NCBI RefSeq assembly: GCF_024502345.1
Contig: NZ_JALDNN010000001.1
Origin: Escherichia coli
GTDB lineage: Bacteria > Pseudomonadota > Gammaproteobacteria > Enterobacterales > Enterobacteriaceae
Strand: one strand, 5' to 3'
Length of the DNA: 64,000 nt
Position 1 is the stretch's first letter, and each line of letters starts with the position of its first letter. Shown here one piece after another: positions 36,429-48,993 of the stretch. Position numbers and translations under genes: made by a program. Under the pieces are notes generated by a model. That model ran no database searches. It saw only the letters and a list, made by a program, of their open reading frames with translations, and was not told the DNA's origin.

Positions 36429-39101
36429 ATGACAGATGTAACGATTAAAACGCTGGCCGCAGAGCGACAGACCTCCGTGGAACGCCTGGTACAGCAATTT
36501 GCTGATGCAGGTATCCGGAAGTCTGCTGACGACTCTGTGTCTGCACAAGAGAAACAGACTTTGATTGACCACCTGAATCAGAAAAATTCAGGCCCGGACA
36601 AATTGACGCTGCAACGTAAAACACGCAGCACCCTTAACATTCCTGGTACCGGTGGAAAAAGCAAATCGGTACAAATCGAAGTCCGCAAGAAACGCACCTT
36701 TGTGAAACGCGATCCGCAAGAGGCTGAACGCCTTGCAGCGGAAGAGCAAGCGCAGCGTGAAGCGGAAGAGCAAGCCCGTCGTGAGGCAGAAGAATCGGCT
36801 AAACGCGAGGCGCAACAAAAAGCTGAACGTGAGGCCGCAGAACAAGCTAAGCGTGAAGCTGCTGAACAAGCGAAACGTGAAGCTGCGGAAAAAGACAAAG
36901 TGAGCAATCAACAAGACGATATGACTAAAAACGCCCAGGCTGAAAAAGCCCGCCGTGAGCAGGAAGCTGCAGAGCTCAAGCGTAAAGCTGAAGAAGAAGC
37001 GCGTCGTAAACTCGAAGAAGAAGCACGTCGCGTTGCTGAAGAAGCACGTCGTATGGCGGAAGAAAACAAATGGACTGATAACGCGGAACCGACTGAAGAT
37101 TCCAGCGATTATCACGTCACTACTTCTCAACATGCTCGCCAGGCAGAAGACGAAAGCGATCGTGAAGTCGAAGGCGGCCGTGGCCGTGGTCGTAACGCGA
37201 AAGCAGCGCGTCCGAAGAAAGGCAACAAACACGCTGAATCAAAAGCTGATCGTGAAGAAGCACGCGCAGCAGTACGTGGCGGTAAAGGCGGAAAACGTAA
37301 AGGTTCTTCCCTGCAGCAAGGCTTCCAGAAGCCTGCTCAGGCCGTTAACCGTGACGTTGTGATCGGCGAAACCATCACCGTTGGCGAACTGGCGAACAAG
37401 ATGGCGGTTAAAGGCTCTCAGGTCATCAAAGCGATGATGAAACTGGGCGCAATGGCAACCATCAACCAGGTTATCGATCAGGAAACCGCACAGCTGGTTG
37501 CTGAAGAGATGGGCCACAAAGTTATCCTGCGTCGTGAAAACGAGCTGGAAGAGGCGGTAATGAGCGACCGTGACACGGGTGCTGCGGCTGAACCGCGCGC
37601 GCCGGTTGTGACCATCATGGGTCACGTTGACCACGGTAAAACCTCTCTGCTGGACTACATTCGTTCAACGAAAGTTGCCTCTGGCGAAGCGGGCGGCATT
37701 ACCCAGCACATTGGTGCATACCACGTTGAAACTGAAAACGGCATGATCACCTTCCTGGACACCCCGGGGCACGCCGCGTTTACTTCAATGCGTGCACGTG
37801 GTGCGCAGGCAACGGACATCGTAGTCCTGGTTGTTGCTGCCGACGACGGCGTGATGCCGCAGACCATCGAAGCAATCCAGCACGCGAAAGCGGCGCAGGT
37901 ACCGGTGGTGGTTGCAGTGAACAAGATTGATAAACCAGAAGCCGATCCGGATCGTGTTAAGAACGAACTCTCCCAGTATGGCATCCTGCCGGAAGAGTGG
38001 GGCGGTGAAAGCCAGTTCGTACACGTATCTGCGAAAGCGGGTACCGGCATCGATGAACTGCTGGACGCTATCCTGCTGCAGGCGGAAGTTCTGGAGCTGA
38101 AAGCGGTACGTAAAGGTATGGCGAGCGGTGCGGTTATCGAATCCTTCCTCGATAAAGGTCGTGGTCCGGTTGCTACCGTTCTGGTACGTGAAGGTACTCT
38201 GCACAAGGGCGATATCGTTCTGTGTGGCTTCGAATACGGTCGTGTTCGTGCGATGCGTAACGAACTGGGTCAGGAAGTGCTGGAAGCGGGTCCGTCCATT
38301 CCGGTGGAAATCCTCGGCCTGTCCGGCGTACCGGCTGCGGGTGATGAAGTTACCGTTGTACGTGACGAGAAGAAAGCGCGTGAAGTTGCACTGTATCGTC
38401 AGGGTAAATTCCGCGAAGTTAAACTGGCGCGTCAGCAGAAATCTAAACTCGAGAACATGTTCGCCAACATGACCGAAGGCGAAGTTCACGAAGTGAACAT
38501 TGTCCTGAAGGCAGACGTACAGGGTTCTGTGGAAGCGATCTCCGACTCCTTGCTGAAACTGTCTACTGACGAAGTTAAAGTGAAGATCATCGGTTCTGGC
38601 GTAGGTGGTATCACCGAAACCGACGCCACCCTGGCTGCGGCGTCCAACGCCATCCTGGTTGGCTTTAATGTACGTGCTGATGCCTCTGCACGTAAAGTGA
38701 TTGAAGCGGAAAGCCTGGATCTGCGTTACTACTCCGTCATCTATAACCTGATCGACGAAGTGAAAGCGGCAATGAGCGGTATGCTGTCTCCGGAACTGAA
38801 ACAACAGATTATCGGTCTGGCGGAAGTTCGTGACGTATTCAAATCACCGAAATTTGGTGCCATTGCAGGTTGTATGGTTACCGAAGGTGTGGTTAAACGT
38901 CACAACCCGATCCGCGTTCTGCGCGACAACGTGGTTATCTACGAAGGCGAGCTGGAGTCCCTGCGCCGCTTCAAAGATGACGTTAACGAAGTCCGTAACG
39001 GTATGGAATGTGGTATCGGCGTTAAGAACTACAACGATGTCCGCACTGGCGATGTGATCGAAGTATTCGAGATCATCGAAATCCAACGTACCATCGCTTA
39101 A
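36429..39101 (+). CDS. infB: translation initiation factor IF-2
   Basis: 890 aa; repetitive [11 protein letters not shown]-terminal region, G domain ([18 protein letters not shown]). Confidence 0.97.
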
Positions 39102-43410: not shown

Positions 43411-43517
43411 GGTTGCCATTTGCCCTCCGCTGCGCGGGGGGCTTTTAACCGGGCAGGACGCCTTGTTAGCAACCGGGAACAGGACGTTCATTCAACCGTG
43501 GTCTTCGGGAGTGGGAA

Positions 43518-44402
43518 ATGAAGCCTTTTTTGCGCTGGTGTTTCGTTGCGACAGCACTTACGCTTGCAGGATGCAGTAATACTTCCTGGCGTAAAAGTGA
43601 AGTCCTCGCGGTACCATTGCAACCGACTTTACAGCAGGAAGTGATTCTGGCACGTATGGAACAAATCCTTGCCAGTCGGGCTTTAACCGATGACGAACGC
43701 GCACAGCTTTTATATGAGCGCGGAGTGTTGTATGATAGTCTCGGTCTGAGGGCATTAGCGCGTAACGATTTTTCGCAAGCGCTGGCAATCCGACCGGATA
43801 TGCCTGAAGTATTCAATTACTTAGGCATATATTTAACGCAGGCAGGCAATTTTGATGCTGCCTATGAAGCGTTTGATTCTGTACTTGAGCTTGATCCAAC
43901 TTACAACTACGCGCACTTGAATCGCGGGATCGCATTATATTACGGCGGTCGTGACAAGTTAGCGCAAGATGATCTGCTGGCGTTTTATCAAGACGATCCC
44001 AATGATCCTTTCCGTAGTCTGTGGCTTTATCTCGCCGAGCAGAAGCTCGATGAGAAGCAGGCTAAAGAAGTGTTGAAACAGCACTTCGAAAAATCGGATA
44101 AGGAACAGTGGGGATGGAACATTGTCGAGTTCTACCTGGGCAACATTAGCGAACAAACGTTAATGGAAAGGCTCAAGGCGGACGCAACGGATAACACCTC
44201 GCTCGCTGAGCATCTCAGTGAAACCAACTTCTATTTAGGTAAGTACTACCTAAGTCTGGGGGATTTGGACAGCGCCACGGCACTGTTCAAACTGGCGGTT
44301 GCCAACAACGTTCATAACTTTGTTGAGCACCGATACGCATTGTTGGAATTATCGCTCCTGGGCCAGGACCAAGATGACCTGGCAGAATCGGACCAGCAAT
44401 AG
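43518..44402 (+). CDS. nlpI: TPR-repeat lipoprotein NlpI
   Basis: 294 aa; lipobox LAGC. Confidence 0.95.
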
Positions 44403-44581
44403 CTGACGTACACATCAGCCCGTAATCTTTTTTGATTGCCATCACCTTAACGGGTGAGGGCGTTGTTGTTCGTTAATACACCTACTTTGAGCCGGTTCAC
44501 ACTTTTCAATGAAAATTGCTGATCAATTTCATGATGAGTTATGTAGACTGGCCGCCATTAATTTTGAGGCACACGTACTAC

Positions 44582-46471
44582 ATGGCTGAATTCGAAACCA
44601 CTTTTGCAGATCTGGGCCTGAAGGCTCCTATCCTTGAAGCCCTTAACGATCTGGGTTACGAAAAACCATCTCCAATTCAGGCAGAGTGTATTCCACATCT
44701 GCTGAATGGCCGCGACGTTCTGGGTATGGCCCAGACGGGGAGCGGAAAAACTGCAGCATTCTCTTTACCTCTGTTGCAGAATCTTGATCCTGAGCTGAAA
44801 GCACCACAGATTCTGGTGCTGGCACCGACCCGCGAACTGGCGGTACAGGTTGCTGAAGCAATGACGGATTTCTCTAAACACATGCGCGGCGTAAATGTGG
44901 TTGCTCTGTACGGCGGCCAGCGGTATGACGTGCAATTACGCGCCCTGCGTCAGGGGCCGCAGATCGTTGTCGGTACTCCGGGCCGTCTGCTGGACCACCT
45001 GAAACGTGGCACTCTGGACCTCTCTAAACTGAGCGGTCTGGTTCTGGATGAAGCTGACGAAATGCTGCGCATGGGCTTCATCGAAGACGTTGAAACCATT
45101 ATGGCGCAGATCCCGGAAGGTCATCAGACCGCTCTGTTCTCTGCAACCATGCCGGAAGCGATTCGTCGCATTACCCGCCGCTTTATGAAAGAGCCGCAGG
45201 AAGTGCGCATTCAGTCCAGCGTGACTACCCGTCCTGACATCAGCCAGAGCTACTGGACTGTCTGGGGTATGCGCAAAAACGAAGCACTGGTACGTTTCCT
45301 GGAAGCGGAAGATTTTGATGCGGCGATTATCTTCGTTCGTACCAAAAACGCGACTCTGGAAGTGGCTGAAGCTCTTGAGCGTAACGGCTACAACAGCGCC
45401 GCGCTGAACGGTGACATGAACCAGGCGCTGCGTGAACAGACACTGGAACGCCTGAAAGATGGTCGTCTGGACATCCTGATTGCGACCGACGTTGCAGCCC
45501 GTGGCCTGGACGTTGAGCGTATCAGCCTGGTAGTTAACTACGATATCCCGATGGATTCTGAGTCTTACGTTCACCGTATCGGTCGTACCGGTCGTGCGGG
45601 TCGTGCTGGCCGCGCGCTGCTGTTCGTTGAGAACCGCGAGCGTCGTCTGCTGCGCAACATTGAACGTACTATGAAGCTGACTATTCCGGAAGTAGAACTG
45701 CCGAACGCAGAACTGCTGGGCAAACGCCGTCTGGAAAAATTCGCCGCTAAAGTACAGCAGCAGCTGGAAAGCAGCGATCTGGATCAATACCGCGCACTGC
45801 TGAGCAAAATTCAGCCGACTGCAGAAGGTGAAGAGCTGGATCTCGAAACTCTGGCTGCGGCACTGCTGAAAATGGCACAGGGTGAACGTACTCTGATCGT
45901 ACCGCCAGATGCGCCGATGCGTCCGAAACGTGAATTCCGTGACCGTGATGACCGTGGTCCGCGCGATCGTAACGACCGTGGCCCGCGTGGTGACCGTGAA
46001 GATCGTCCGCGTCGTGAACGTCGTGATGTTGGCGATATGCAGCTGTACCGCATTGAAGTGGGCCGCGATGATGGTGTTGAAGTTCGTCATATCGTTGGTG
46101 CGATTGCTAACGAAGGCGACATCAGCAGCCGTTACATTGGTAACATCAAGCTGTTTGCTTCTCACTCCACCATCGAACTGCCGAAAGGTATGCCGGGTGA
46201 AGTGCTGCAACACTTTACGCGCACTCGCATCCTCAACAAACCGATGAATATGCAGTTGCTGGGCGATGCACAGCCGCATACTGGCGGTGAGCGTCGTGGC
46301 GGTGGTCGTGGTTTCAGTGGCGAGCGTCGTGAAGGCGGTCGTAACTTTAGCGGTGAACGCCGTGAAGGTGGTCGTGGTGATGGTCGTCGTTTTAGCGGCG
46401 AACGTCGTGAAGGCCGCGCTCCGCGTCGTGATGAATCTACCGGTCGTCGTCGTTTCGGTGGTGATGCGTAA
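44582..46471 (+). CDS. deaD: DEAD-box RNA helicase DeaD (CsdA)
   Basis: 629 aa from ATG at 44582 ([13 protein letters not shown]); motifs [15 protein letters not shown]; RG-rich C-terminal repeats. Confidence 0.9.
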
Positions 46472-46513
46472 TCATCGCTGAACAGCGAACACAGTCTGTA
46501 AAATAATATATAC

Positions 46514-46544
46514 AGCCCCGATTTGAACCATCGGGGCTTTTTTT
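46514..46544 (+). terminator. intrinsic terminator after deaD
   Basis: AGCCCCGATTTGAACCATCGGGGCT followed by TTTTTTT. Confidence 0.7.
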
Positions 46545-46552
46545 CTGTCTTT

Positions 46553-46572
46553 TGTACTCGTGTACTGGTACA
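46553..46572. promoter_or_regulatory. TrpR operator-like palindrome in the mtr promoter
   Basis: TGTACTCGTGTACTGGTACA with GTAC half-sites as in trp-type operators; a TyrR-box-like TGTAAAATAATATATACA lies at 46497-46514. Confidence 0.5.
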
Positions 46573-46624
46573 GTGCAATACATAACAACGCAGTCGCACT
46601 ATTTTTCACTGGAGAGAAGCCCTC

Positions 46625-47869
46625 ATGGCAACACTAACCACCACCCAAACGTCACCGTCGCTGCTTGGCGGCGTGGTGATTATCGGCGGCACCATTATTG
46701 GCGCAGGGATGTTTTCTCTGCCAGTGGTCATGTCCGGGGCGTGGTTTTTCTGGTCAATGGCGGCGCTGATCTTTACCTGGTTCTGTATGCTGCATTCCGG
46801 CTTGATGATTCTGGAAGCTAACCTGAATTACAGAATCGGTTCGAGTTTTGACACCATCACCAAAGATTTGCTGGGCAAAGGCTGGAACGTGGTCAACGGC
46901 ATTTCCATTGCCTTTGTGCTCTATATCCTGACCTATGCCTATATTTCTGCCAGTGGTTCGATTCTGCATCACACCTTCGCAGAGATGTCACTAAACGTCC
47001 CGGCACGGGCGGCGGGTTTTGGTTTTGCATTGCTGGTAGCGTTTGTGGTGTGGTTGAGCACTAAAGCCGTCAGTCGCATGACAGCGATTGTGCTGGGGGC
47101 GAAAGTCATTACCTTCTTCCTCACCTTTGGTAGCCTGCTGGGGCATGTGCAGCCTGCGACATTGTTCAACGTCGCCGAAAGCAATGCGTCTTATGCACCG
47201 TATCTGTTGATGACCCTGCCGTTCTGTCTGGCATCGTTTGGTTATCACGGTAACGTGCCAAGCCTGATGAAGTATTACGGCAAAGATCCGAAAACCATCG
47301 TGAAATGCCTGGTGTACGGTACGCTGATGGCGCTGGCGCTGTATACCATCTGGTTGCTGGCGACGATGGGTAACATCCCGCGTCCGGAGTTTATCGGTAT
47401 TGCAGAGAAGGGCGGTAATATTGATGTGCTGGTACAGGCGTTAAGCGGCGTACTGAACAGCCGTAGTCTGGATCTGCTGCTGGTCGTGTTCTCAAACTTT
47501 GCGGTAGCGAGTTCGTTCCTCGGCGTAACGCTGGGTTTGTTTGACTATCTGGCAGATCTGTTTGGTTTCGACGACTCGGCTGTGGGCCGCTTGAAAACGG
47601 CATTGCTGACCTTTGCCCCGCCAGTTGTGGGGGGGCTGTTGTTCCCGAACGGATTCCTGTACGCCATTGGTTATGCTGGTTTAGCGGCTACCATCTGGGC
47701 GGCAATTGTTCCGGCGCTGTTAGCCCGTGCATCGCGTAAACGCTTTGGCAGCCCGAAATTCCGCGTCTGGGGTGGCAAGCCGATGATTGCGCTGATTCTG
47801 GTGTTTGGCGTCGGCAACGCACTGGTGCATATTTTATCGAGCTTTAATTTACTGCCGGTGTATCAGTAA
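46625..47869 (+). CDS. mtr: tryptophan-specific permease Mtr
   Basis: 414 aa polytopic membrane protein. Confidence 0.93.
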
Positions 47870-47985: not shown

Positions 47986-48993
47986 CTATCCCAACAACTC
48001 TTCCTTAACATCCATCGCCAGCTCAAACGAATGCAGGCGCGCCTGGTGGTCGAAAATCTGCCCGTTAACCATAATCTCATCGGCGTCGGTTTCGCGCAGG
48101 ATCGACTGCAAGCCATGACGCACTTTCGCTTTATCGCCCACCAGCGACATACTCAGCGCCTGTTGCACGCCATACTGCTCAGACGGTGACCAGAACTGAT
48201 CCATATTTTGAATCGGCGGCGGCAGTTGCCCGGTTTCGCCACGGCGCAGCTTCACAAAGGCTTGCTGCATTGAGGTAAACAGAAATTCAGCGTCGCGGTT
48301 GCTGTCGGCAGCGATAATATTGATGCACACCATCGCGTATGGTTTTTCCAGTCGTGCCGACGGTTTGAAGTTGCTGCGATAAAGATGCAGCGCCTGGAAC
48401 AACATATCCGGCGCGAAGTGTGAGGCAAACGCAAACGGCAGACCAAGCTGCGCCGCCAGTTGCGCGCTGTAAAGGCTGGAGCCTAACAACCACACGGGGA
48501 TTTTCTCGCCATAGCCTGGTACCGGGCGCACATGCGGATTGGGATCGCGGGCGTCAAACCAGTCCACCAGCTCCGCCACATCGCGGGGGAAATTATCAAT
48601 ATCGCCGCTCATATGACGACGTAGCGCCATCATTGTCCGTTGGTCACTACCCGGAGCACGACCCAGCCCCAAATCGATTCGCCCCGGATAGAGTGTATTA
48701 AGCGTGCCGAACTGTTCTGCAATGACCAACGGTGAGTGGTTAGGCAACATCACGCCGCCAGACCCCAGATGCAGCGTGGTGGTATTCGCCGCCAGATAGC
48801 CAATCAATACCGACGTGGCAGCACTGGCAATGCCAGTCATATTGTGGTGTTCTGCCAGCCAGTAGCGATGATAGCCGCGCTTTTCAGCCAGACGGGCGAG
48901 ATCGAGAGAGTGGGAGAATGCTTCTCGCGCTGAAGAACCTTCGGGAATGGGGGCCAGATCGAGTAGCGAAAACGCAATGGTTTTATCAGTCAT
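47986..48993 (-). CDS. yhbW: luciferase-like monooxygenase family protein YhbW
   Basis: 335 aa. Confidence 0.88.

Follow-up and report, generated by a model that had tools for sequence, protein, structure and literature searches.

The R/G-rich repeat tail encoded at the 3' end of Escherichia coli deaD and its in-frame length variation between strains

The 3' end of deaD in the stretch of E. coli DNA analysed here (64 kb, referred to as the window) carries a tandem repeat, and the question it raises is whether this is a repeat of the DNA, a repeat of the protein or neither, and whether its length differs between strains. A first-pass annotation, made from the letters of the window, had placed three near-identical units of about 30 nt at 46270-46440, and had credited them with encoding an RG-rich DeaD tail, with causing spurious open reading frames (ORFs) in other frames and with a tendency to slippage and length variation.

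Judged from its matches, this is the 3' end of deaD (csdA), which encodes E. coli's cold-shock DEAD-box RNA helicase. The product scored 1397 bits (1396.7) against the NCBIfam equivalog model NF008642, whose cut-off is 989, and aligned with it end to end, residues 1-629 on model positions 1-628. E. coli RefSeq records in which the stretch is identical or near-identical to the window annotate it as deaD, and RefSeq annotates the gene in 5,425 of 5,426 E. coli genomes. The Pfam domains follow in the order PF00270 DEAD (residues 30-196), PF00271 Helicase_C (232-340), PF25399 DeaD_dimer (374-443), PF03880 DbpA (489-558) and PF12343 DeaD_C (568-629), with which the PDB DeaD fragments 5GI4 and 5B88 agree. 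The features of the gene that concern us are as follows.

44582-46471, + strand: deaD (csdA) coding sequence, 629 aa plus stop, from the ORF list, NF008642, Pfam and the RefSeq loci
46046-46255, + strand: DbpA-type RNA-binding domain (RRM-like), directly 5' of the tail; PF03880, residues 489-558, and PDB 5B88, residues 481-564
46283-46468, + strand: C-terminal R/G-rich tail, Pfam DeaD_C (PF12343), residues 568-629
46469-46471, + strand: deaD stop codon
46514-46546, + strand: intrinsic terminator of deaD, a 9-bp stem with 6 G-C pairs followed by a T-run

The mechanically called deaD ORF reaches further upstream, to a TTG at 44516. At annotated E. coli loci matching the window the gene order is nlpI - yrbN - deaD - mtr - yhbW; 3' of deaD in the window, a 414-aa ORF (46625-47869, + strand) and a 335-aa ORF (47986-48993, - strand) fit mtr and yhbW in position and length, an agreement that covers the downstream side only.

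The last 62 residues of DeaD match PF12343 over the whole model (1-62 of 62) with 43.3 bits against a gathering cut-off of 23.3, and Pfam gives this family the title "DeaD helicase C-terminal disordered region". The R/G-rich repeat tail of deaD is a known and ordinary feature, catalogued as a curated Pfam family; the tail in the window is this region of the Enterobacterales DeaD/CsdA proteins, and nothing of substance differs. With 19 Arg and 19 Gly in 63 residues (60% R+G) it has a net charge of +8 and uses 18 codon types; its Phe residues recur at intervals of 11-15, and its charge blocks alternate in the pattern -++-. This composition and the NF008642 and PF12343 matches bear out the description of the repeats as encoding an RG-rich DeaD tail. 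An AF2 model, built on a shallow alignment of 17 sequences, gave the DbpA-type domain a beta-alpha-beta-beta-alpha-beta fold (pLDDT 61-77) and left the tail (model residues 82-145) at pLDDT below 50 with no secondary structure, a result which that alignment makes only supportive. The tail is predicted to be unstructured and lies outside every solved structure, none of the PDB chains covering it (5B88 ends at residue 564 and 5GI4 at 445).

Within the tail, TRF reported an array (46284-46378) with a period of 33, 2.9 copies and 72% matches; its score of 106 is the highest of any tandem repeat in the 64-kb window. Codon-by-codon dissection resolved it into four in-frame units of 33 nt (11 codons each), with a non-repeated end behind them.

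46280-46312, + strand: unit U0, degenerate and leading, with 21-26 of 33 nt the same as in U1 and U2
46313-46345, + strand: unit U1, whose peptide differs from that of the common E. coli allele
46346-46378, + strand: unit U2, with a 12-nt extension at 46379-46390 (DGRR), the whole being 46346-46390
46391-46423, + strand: unit U3
46424-46468, + strand: non-repeated C-terminal end of 15 residues, holding the RRRFG(G)DA motif

A tandem repeat is indeed present where it had been placed, the four units spanning 46280-46423. Its period is 33 nt and not about 30, and the units are spaced by 33, 33 and 45 nt, the last between U2 and U3. The core peptide of a unit reads (F)(S/G)GERREGGR, and the RRRFGGDA end follows the array. 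Three near-identical units are found at the level of the peptide, FSGERREG occurring three times in the tail; as DNA the units agree at only 18-26 of 33 nt, no exact direct repeat in the window exceeds 12 nt, and a fourth, degenerate unit leads the array. Among 20,000 composition-preserving shuffles of the tail residues a single one equalled this by containing three copies of an 8-mer, or two of a 10-mer. The peptide-level repeat is real.

The synonymous sites of the units were compared with what codon usage alone would give. At positions with the same residue, identical codons were found in 27 of 46 cases against 24.9 expected, and the mean nucleotide identity between units was 22.5 of 33 nt, compared with 21.35 +/- 0.89 under synonymous recoding (p about 0.12). 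Codon usage is enough to explain how far these sites are scrambled, and the repeat is therefore old and kept at the protein level. The units are found again in tails of Klebsiella-, Salmonella- and Serratia-like type, where a tail has 0-5 GERR cores; their number differs between enterobacterial genera, and the GERR core is missing from some enterobacterial tails. These counts come from a homology search with the RNA-binding domain and tail whose matches were mostly gene fragments, among them fragments with a V-rich tail in the +1 frame. The order of the units is held in common with Klebsiella- and Salmonella-like tails. Best conserved across genera is RRRFG(G)DA: tails from Klebsiella to Serratia-like ones retain RRRF-G-DA at their terminus, and R138 and R139 are invariant in the cross-genus alignment (A2). 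Of the 9 coding SNPs that separate the window from the common E. coli allele, 7 lie at third codon positions of the deaD frame and are synonymous. Synonymous sites of the units differ to the extent expected from codon usage, and the units recur across enterobacterial genera; it is therefore protein-level selection, and not recent duplication or homogenisation of the DNA, that maintains the array.

Comparison with other E. coli deaD alleles, the check that had been proposed for the repeat, found length differences, mostly smaller than a unit. The survey covered 5,425 complete E. coli genomes, with about 19 at 90-95% identity and 2 at 80-90% left out of the allele assignment. The tail is of exactly standard length in about 96% of the genomes and of another length in at least 228 (4.2%), the alleles being +12 nt (about 160 genomes), +15 (48), -78 (19) and -132 (at least 1). 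Every one of them keeps the reading frame. The +15 allele occurs in mostly clinical genomes, including strains named ST361, and the -78 allele in clinical and companion-animal isolates. The documented carrier of the -132 allele is a clinical isolate, FXCREC035, which is left without any repeat unit; its count is a lower bound, as standard alleles cover the -132 query in two overlapping pieces. The predicted length variation between strains was thereby borne out. The allele in the window is itself a minority one, with Ser for Gly in unit 1 and, towards the end, Glu for Asp; just 21 of the 5,425 genomes reach at least 99% identity to it over 371 nt.

Direct repeats at the event sites (8 nt at a spacing of 15, 18 nt at a spacing of 78 and 8 nt at a spacing of 132) fit three of the four events exactly; no direct repeat of at least 8 nt accounts for the +12 allele. 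Only the -78 event takes out whole units, and its end points lie in the following pair.

46325-46336, + strand: left copy of the direct repeat CGTCGTGAAGGC, where the recurrent 78-nt deletion has its left end
46403-46414, + strand: right copy of CGTCGTGAAGGC, 78 nt downstream of the left copy

In the common allele this repeat extends to 18 nt (GGCGAACGTCGTGAAGGC), whereas it is shorter, 12 nt, in the window allele, a GAG/GAA difference separating the two. Each -78 haplotype differs from a full-length allele of its own background by 0 SNPs over 1401 nt, and the two haplotypes differ from each other at 21 SNPs. The haplotypes indicate that the deletion arose independently at least twice, on two backgrounds. 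All direct repeats of at least 8 nt in the array are spaced by multiples of 3, which is why the products stay in frame. Since the units have diverged at synonymous sites, the alleles point to short exact repeats of 8-18 nt, and not whole units, as the substrates for slippage or short-homology recombination.

The array resembles the slipped-strand coding minisatellites of bacteria in its in-frame, head-to-tail arrangement beyond chance, in its length polymorphism between strains and in recurrent deletions that end in direct repeats. It differs from them in that its units have diverged as DNA (64-79% identity), so that variation is rare, mostly sub-unit and largely clonal. This also sets it apart from contingency loci with high-frequency switching, as variation in deaD is found in about 4% of genomes and is largely clonally inherited.

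Two further ORFs lie across the tail, as the first-pass annotation had pointed out.

46266-46481, + strand: V-rich 71-aa ORF across the tail in the +1 frame, a by-product; from the ORF list, no Pfam family
46162-46599, - strand: 145-aa antisense ORF over the tail, terminator and intergenic spacer, P/R/S-rich, a by-product; from the ORF list, no Pfam family

The overlap stands, and the repetition as such is not its source. As none of the codons in the tail has TA or TG as its last two letters, a stop cannot form in the +1 frame, and deaD as a whole has only 2 TTA/CTA/TCA codons. From this codon list, the alternative-frame ORFs are by-products of a narrow codon vocabulary and not genes.

Long ORFs on both strands, together with a minimum free energy of -83.9 kcal/mol for the tail region, could be taken to mean that the repeats act at the nucleic-acid level, whether as a structured element in the 3' mRNA or as a target for an sRNA, or that one of the overlapping ORFs is a real gene. 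The fold is not significant (z-score -1.42, with 20 of 200 shuffles folding as well), and a Rfam scan of 43500-47000 returned no match at E <= 0.1; the RNA-element reading was dropped on these grounds. The coding reading was dropped as well, because Pfam found no family in the 71-aa, the 145-aa or a 447-aa antisense ORF. The strain SNPs follow the deaD frame, being synonymous there and changing 4 residues in the 71-aa ORF and 3-4 in alternative frames, the antisense ORF passes through the deaD terminator, and open frames are what the codon vocabulary would lead one to expect. We regard a nucleic-acid or overlapping-gene role as extremely improbable. Just as little credence is given to the idea that the units are chance matches in an R/G/E-rich low-complexity stretch: short matches are expected at 60% R+G and 18 codon types, but the shuffle test contradicts it, as do the regular spacing of 33/33/45 nt and the TRF score of 106.

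A young DNA-level minisatellite (VNTR), born of recent duplication or gene conversion and varying mainly by whole units, would account for a head-to-tail array of period 33 that is polymorphic in length. It is contradicted by the divergence of the units and by the event sizes, and we consider it very unlikely: synonymous identity is no higher than codon usage predicts, the longest exact repeats are 12 nt (window) and 18 nt (common allele), Klebsiella- and Salmonella-like tails have their units in the same order, and no event of +/-33 nt was among the length alleles observed. Nor did any genome match a synthetic +78 allele as a single full-length piece, a query that discriminates poorly since standard alleles cover it in two overlapping pieces. 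Rather more weight, though still little, goes to the view of the tail as an essentially neutral, dispensable low-complexity appendage, whose repeats are a slippage accident without a function of their own and whose length drifts. A clinical isolate without any unit, the range of 0 to 5 units across Enterobacterales, the activity in vitro of a CsdA construct without the tail (PMC11850223) and the fact that both non-synonymous differences of the window from the common allele lie in the tail would all suit it. Against this, FSGERREG is identical in three units whose synonymous sites are randomised, an indication that purifying selection acts on the peptide; both the unit and RRRFGGDA at the terminus are conserved across genera; and the tail is of standard length in nearly all genomes, with every indel seen in frame.

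The reading that we hold with high confidence is that of an old repeat tail, maintained at the protein level and varying in frame through short repeats, with a probable role in RNA tethering, annealing and condensates. The tail would hang off the RRM-like domain as a flexible tether that is not specific for RNA sequence, as the literature on DeaD/CsdA and on basic tails of other DEAD-box proteins suggests; it would raise the local RNA concentration at the helicase core, contribute to ATP-independent strand annealing and give multivalent Arg/Phe contacts for RNA-dependent DeaD condensates, and its exact length would be only loosely constrained. The DEAD-box proteins of E. coli have C-terminal domains of high positive charge, and that of CsdA is the proposed seat of ATP-independent annealing (PMC3590231); a further proposal is that C-terminal extensions serve as secondary RNA-binding sites (PMC1616957). 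Foci formed by DeaD, and its phase separation in vitro, are described in PMC7414142 (citing Hondele 2019) and PMC12758526. Non-specific RNA tethering and annealing, with multivalency for condensates, may therefore, by analogy, be regarded as the likely function of the tail. As the tail-less construct is active, the tail is unnecessary for catalysis in vitro, and the loss of all units in FXCREC035, together with the enterobacterial tails that have no GERR, implies that the array is dispensable for viability.

Similar tails are known from other helicases. The basic tails of Mss116p and CYT-19 and the disordered extensions of RhlE are, like the DeaD tail, unstructured and positively charged, and come after the core or an accessory domain. 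For tails of the Mss116p/CYT-19 type, non-specific tethering of RNA and an annealing activity have been proposed or shown, in work cited in PMC3590231, and the disordered regions of RhlE affect RNA binding and phase separation (PMC11260450). The likeness is one of description and not of sequence homology; the DeaD tail follows an extra dimerisation domain and the RRM-like domain, and is built of a GERREGGR repeat with interleaved acidic residues. The RGG/RG domains of the eukaryotic proteins LAF-1, DDX4, Ded1 and Dbp2, which are linked to RNA binding and condensates, share with it the richness in Arg and Gly, the periodic aromatics, the disorder and the attachment to a DEAD-box core. An RGG/RG box is defined by a tri-RGG, di-RGG or tri-RG with spacers of 0-4 residues; the DeaD tail has one RGG, three RG and only a di-RG, so that tri-RGG, di-RGG and tri-RG are all absent, and unlike eukaryotic RGG boxes it carries two Glu in every unit. 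To our knowledge, the arginine methylation by PRMTs that is typical of eukaryotic RGG boxes is not to be expected in E. coli. Condensates are also described for DeaD (PMC12758526).

For discovery these findings carry little weight: DeaD is among the best-studied proteins of bacteria, and Pfam already has a curated family for its tail. Annotators may take the ORFs overlapping the deaD tail as by-products, and DeaD lengths of 585-634 aa between E. coli strains as genuine in-frame repeat variants and not as errors. The modest added value is at the population level, in the allele series (-132, -78, standard, +12, +15) and the recurrent deletion between copies of an 18-nt repeat. This series is a natural set for relating the length of a disordered tail to RNA binding, annealing and condensate formation. 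It is conceivable, if doubtful, that the tail-length alleles are not neutral and tune RNA tethering and the condensate threshold through the number of Arg/Phe 'stickers', aiding the spread of the lineages that carry them. If true, this tuning could alter growth in the cold, the assembly of ribosomes, or the phenotypes of dormancy and persistence that have been linked to condensates of DeaD.

The cold-shock helicase gene deaD (csdA) lies in a mechanical open reading frame of 651 codons at 44516-46471 (+), and its conventional start at 44582 (MAEFETTF) gives a product of 629 aa. This protein matched the NCBIfam equivalog NF008642 end to end with 1396.7 bits (cut-off 989). The Pfam domains of the protein and the feature following the gene were as below.

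Residues 30-196, DEAD
Residues 232-340, Helicase_C
Residues 374-443, DeaD_dimer
Residues 489-558, DbpA RNA-binding domain (RBD)
Residues 568-629, DeaD_C (PF12343), entry name 'DeaD helicase C-terminal disordered region'
46514-46538 (+), intrinsic terminator with a 9-bp stem, 3' of the deaD stop codon

The 371 nt at 46150-46520 were annotated as deaD in 5,425 of 5,426 complete E. coli genomes, and the gene order at matching loci was nlpI-yrbN-deaD-mtr-yhbW.

At the 3' end of the gene, Tandem Repeats Finder (TRF) placed 2.9 copies of a 33-nt period at 46284-46378, with 72% matches and a score of 106, the top score of any tandem repeat in the whole 64-kb window. Codon-by-codon reading resolved four in-frame units.

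46280-46312 (+), U0, 11 residues, degenerate unit
46313-46345 (+), U1, 11 residues
46346-46378 (+), U2, 11 residues, then a 12-nt extension (DGRR) at 46379-46390
46391-46423 (+), U3, 11 residues

Fifteen further residues follow U3 before the stop codon. FSGERREG occurs three times in the 63-aa tail and one 10-residue peptide twice; since either count was reached in only 1 of 20,000 shuffles of its residues, the repeat is genuine and not just a composition bias. The first-pass annotation had described three near-identical tandem units of about 30 nt, and this observation is confirmed with minor corrections: the true period is 33 nt (one unit spacing, unlike this period, is 45 nt), the degenerate U0 is a fourth unit, and near-identity holds for the peptides but not for the DNA, where pairs of units are identical at 18-26 of 33 nt.

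Two other repetitive stretches were observed. An Arg/Asp-rich low-complexity linker (residues ~446-480, window ~45917-46021) joins the dimerisation domain of DeaD to its RBD, has short repeats of its own (TRF period 9, 45903-45926), is not covered by the PDB fragments, and differs in length among genera, with an extra FERRGD in Klebsiella-like sequences. Four overlapping TRF arrays (period 24 or 21, scores 68-88) at 36737-37064 (+) encode a charged Ala/Glu/Lys/Arg-rich repeat inside an 890-aa ORF (36429-39101), whose position and size suggest a candidate translation initiation factor IF2 (infB).

Where two units carry the same residue, the codons were identical at 27 of 46 positions, against 24.9 expected from deaD codon usage, and the mean pairwise identity of 22.5 nt compares with 21.35 ± 0.89 for a random synonymous redraw (p ~0.12). 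The longest exact direct repeat within the tail of the window is 12 nt. As codon identity between units is at chance level, synonymous sites are saturated while the peptides stay identical, the signature of purifying selection on the peptide of each unit. The same pattern speaks against a recent duplication and against gene conversion, and the repeat is old and maintained at the protein level. Consistent with such selection, the units recur across genera: together with the terminal RRRFGGDA they are also found in Klebsiella-, Salmonella- and Serratia-like DeaD tails. GERR cores number 0 to 5 per tail among the enterobacterial DeaD tails compared, and in farther families (Proteus, Pasteurellaceae-like) the R/G/D-rich tails are of a different kind.

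We compared the 371 nt of the window with 5,425 E. coli genomes, and fetched and translated the outliers. Most genomes were 95-99% identical (mostly about 97%), only 21 of the 5,425 reached ≥99%, and the best match (100%) was strain GF3-3 from guinea fowl. The window therefore carries a minority allele and belongs to an E. coli lineage that has been sampled less. Its allele differs from the common one by two residues (Ser in place of Gly in U1, Glu in place of Asp near the end) and by seven synonymous changes. Five tail length classes were found.

Length classes of the deaD tail in E. coli, relative to the standard length
Standard: 629 aa
+12 nt: duplicates REGG; 633 aa; WP_001306022.1; ~160 genomes (those ≥99% identical to this allele)
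+15 nt: exact tandem duplication of GGCGGTGAGCGTCGT (GGERR); 634 aa; WP_064221452.1; 48 genomes, several named ST361
-78 nt: 603 aa; WP_005001325.1; 19 genomes
-132 nt: every unit removed; 585 aa; WP_336186901.1; at least 1 genome

The length variation between strains expected earlier was thus borne out by the comparison of repeat number across alleles: four non-standard lengths occur in at least 228 of 5,425 genomes (4.2%), with ~21 genomes in low-identity bands left out of the assignment. All tail indels found were in frame. No single-unit change of ±33 nt was seen among these alleles, and a synthetic +78 allele used as query matched no genome as one full-length piece.

Three of the four length events begin and end exactly at direct repeats of ≥8 nt in the common allele: the 18-nt GGCGAACGTCGTGAAGGC, whose copies are spaced by 78 nt, GCGTCGTG (spaced by 132 nt) and TGGCGGTG (spaced by 15 nt). 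The spacing of every repeat of ≥8 nt in this tail is a multiple of three, so slippage is automatically frame-preserving. The 78-nt deletion is recurrent: over 1401 nt the deleted haplotype of EC0026B is free of SNPs relative to the full-length allele of ATCC 8739, that of SCEC020001 is likewise free of SNPs relative to the full-length allele of WCHEC020031, and the two deleted haplotypes differ at 21 sites. In the window, GAG replaces GAA in U1 and cuts the 18-nt repeat to 12 nt, so this allele would be less prone to the deletion. Another -78 carrier, CUVET16-559 (NZ_CP150990.1), has 1399 nt rather than 1401 nt from the deaD 3' end to the mtr start, an additional 2-nt indel lying somewhere in between.

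Three long ORFs lie in other frames.

46266-46481 (+), 71-aa ORF, V-rich, overlaps the tail
46162-46599 (-), 145-aa ORF, P/R/S-rich, overlaps the tail
44936-46279 (-), 447-aa antisense ORF, spans most of deaD exactly in register with its codons

None of the three matched a Pfam family. Because none of the 18 codon types used in the tail ends in TA or TG, the +1 frame cannot hold a stop. The 447-aa frame is open because only TTA, CTA and TCA close an in-register antisense frame, and deaD has two such codons (62 and 119). Of nine strain SNPs, seven fall at third positions and are silent in the deaD frame, but 3-4 residues are altered in the alternative frames. With no Pfam family and SNPs that follow the deaD frame, a coding reading was dropped; these ORFs are by-products of codon vocabulary, spurious as had been proposed. 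An Rfam scan of 43500-47000 (E ≤ 0.1) gave no match, and unusual RNA stability was not found in the tail region (z = -1.42).

Many database DeaD fragments (P0006, P0007, P0033, P0043, P0067, P0070, P0073, P0081, P0049, P0054, P0056) leave the deaD frame within the RG tail for the +1 frame, which lacks stops, acquiring a hydrophobic V-rich tail (...VVKAVV...) that stops just 10 nt past the normal stop. The majority are from automated (Logan/ENA) assemblies and probably reflect sequencing errors, and some may be real frameshift alleles. P0041 and P0001 carry compensated (out-and-back) frameshift segments.

No solved structure includes the tail: PDB 5GI4 stops at residue 445, and 5B88 spans 481-564. 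An AlphaFold2 model of residues 485-629 gave the RBD a beta-alpha-beta-beta-alpha-beta fold (pLDDT 61-77) and left the tail (model residues 82-145) below pLDDT 50 without secondary structure; resting on a shallow alignment, it is supportive only. Of the 63 residues, Arg and Gly contribute 19 each, Glu 8 and Phe 4; the net charge is +8, the charges follow a regular -++- pattern, and each unit opens with Phe. The terminal RRRF-G-DA is the most conserved portion of the tail across genera; at this extreme C-terminus (RRRFG(G)DA, 46424-46468) two Arg are invariant and conservation among Enterobacterales exceeds that of the preceding units, so a short linear motif with its own partner may lie here. 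The C-terminal domains of E. coli DEAD-box proteins carry a strong positive charge, and that of CsdA has been proposed to hold its ATP-independent annealing activity (PMC3590231). C-terminal extensions have been proposed as secondary RNA-binding sites that keep the core on its substrate (PMC1616957), and PMC7414142 (citing Hondele et al. 2019) and PMC12758526 describe DeaD foci in E. coli and phase separation in vitro. By analogy, the array would act as a flexible, non-specific RNA tether and a multivalency module added onto the specific RBD, a role to which, on this literature, we give slightly better than even chances. Two observations speak against the tail being essential: a construct lacking it was catalytically active in vitro, as PMC11850223 summarises Xu et al. 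2017, and natural -78 and -132 alleles exist.

Among known systems, the tail belongs to DeaD/CsdA PF12343, showing all the defining features tested. It may work like the basic C-tails of Mss116p/CYT-19, and can be likened to the disordered extensions of RhlE helicases (PMC11260450). In composition it resembles eukaryotic RGG/RG domains, but it has one RGG, no di- or tri-RGG and no tri-RG, and so falls outside their motif definitions. As a tandem repeat it has copy structure and strain polymorphism but lacks high inter-unit DNA identity, which fits the rarity of variants and the mostly sub-unit event size. The earlier interpretation is supported, and the structural and evolutionary description of the tail can be held with high confidence. 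A repeat-built DeaD tail is already known and ordinary; what is new is descriptive, namely the set of length alleles and the repeated origin of the 78-nt deletion.
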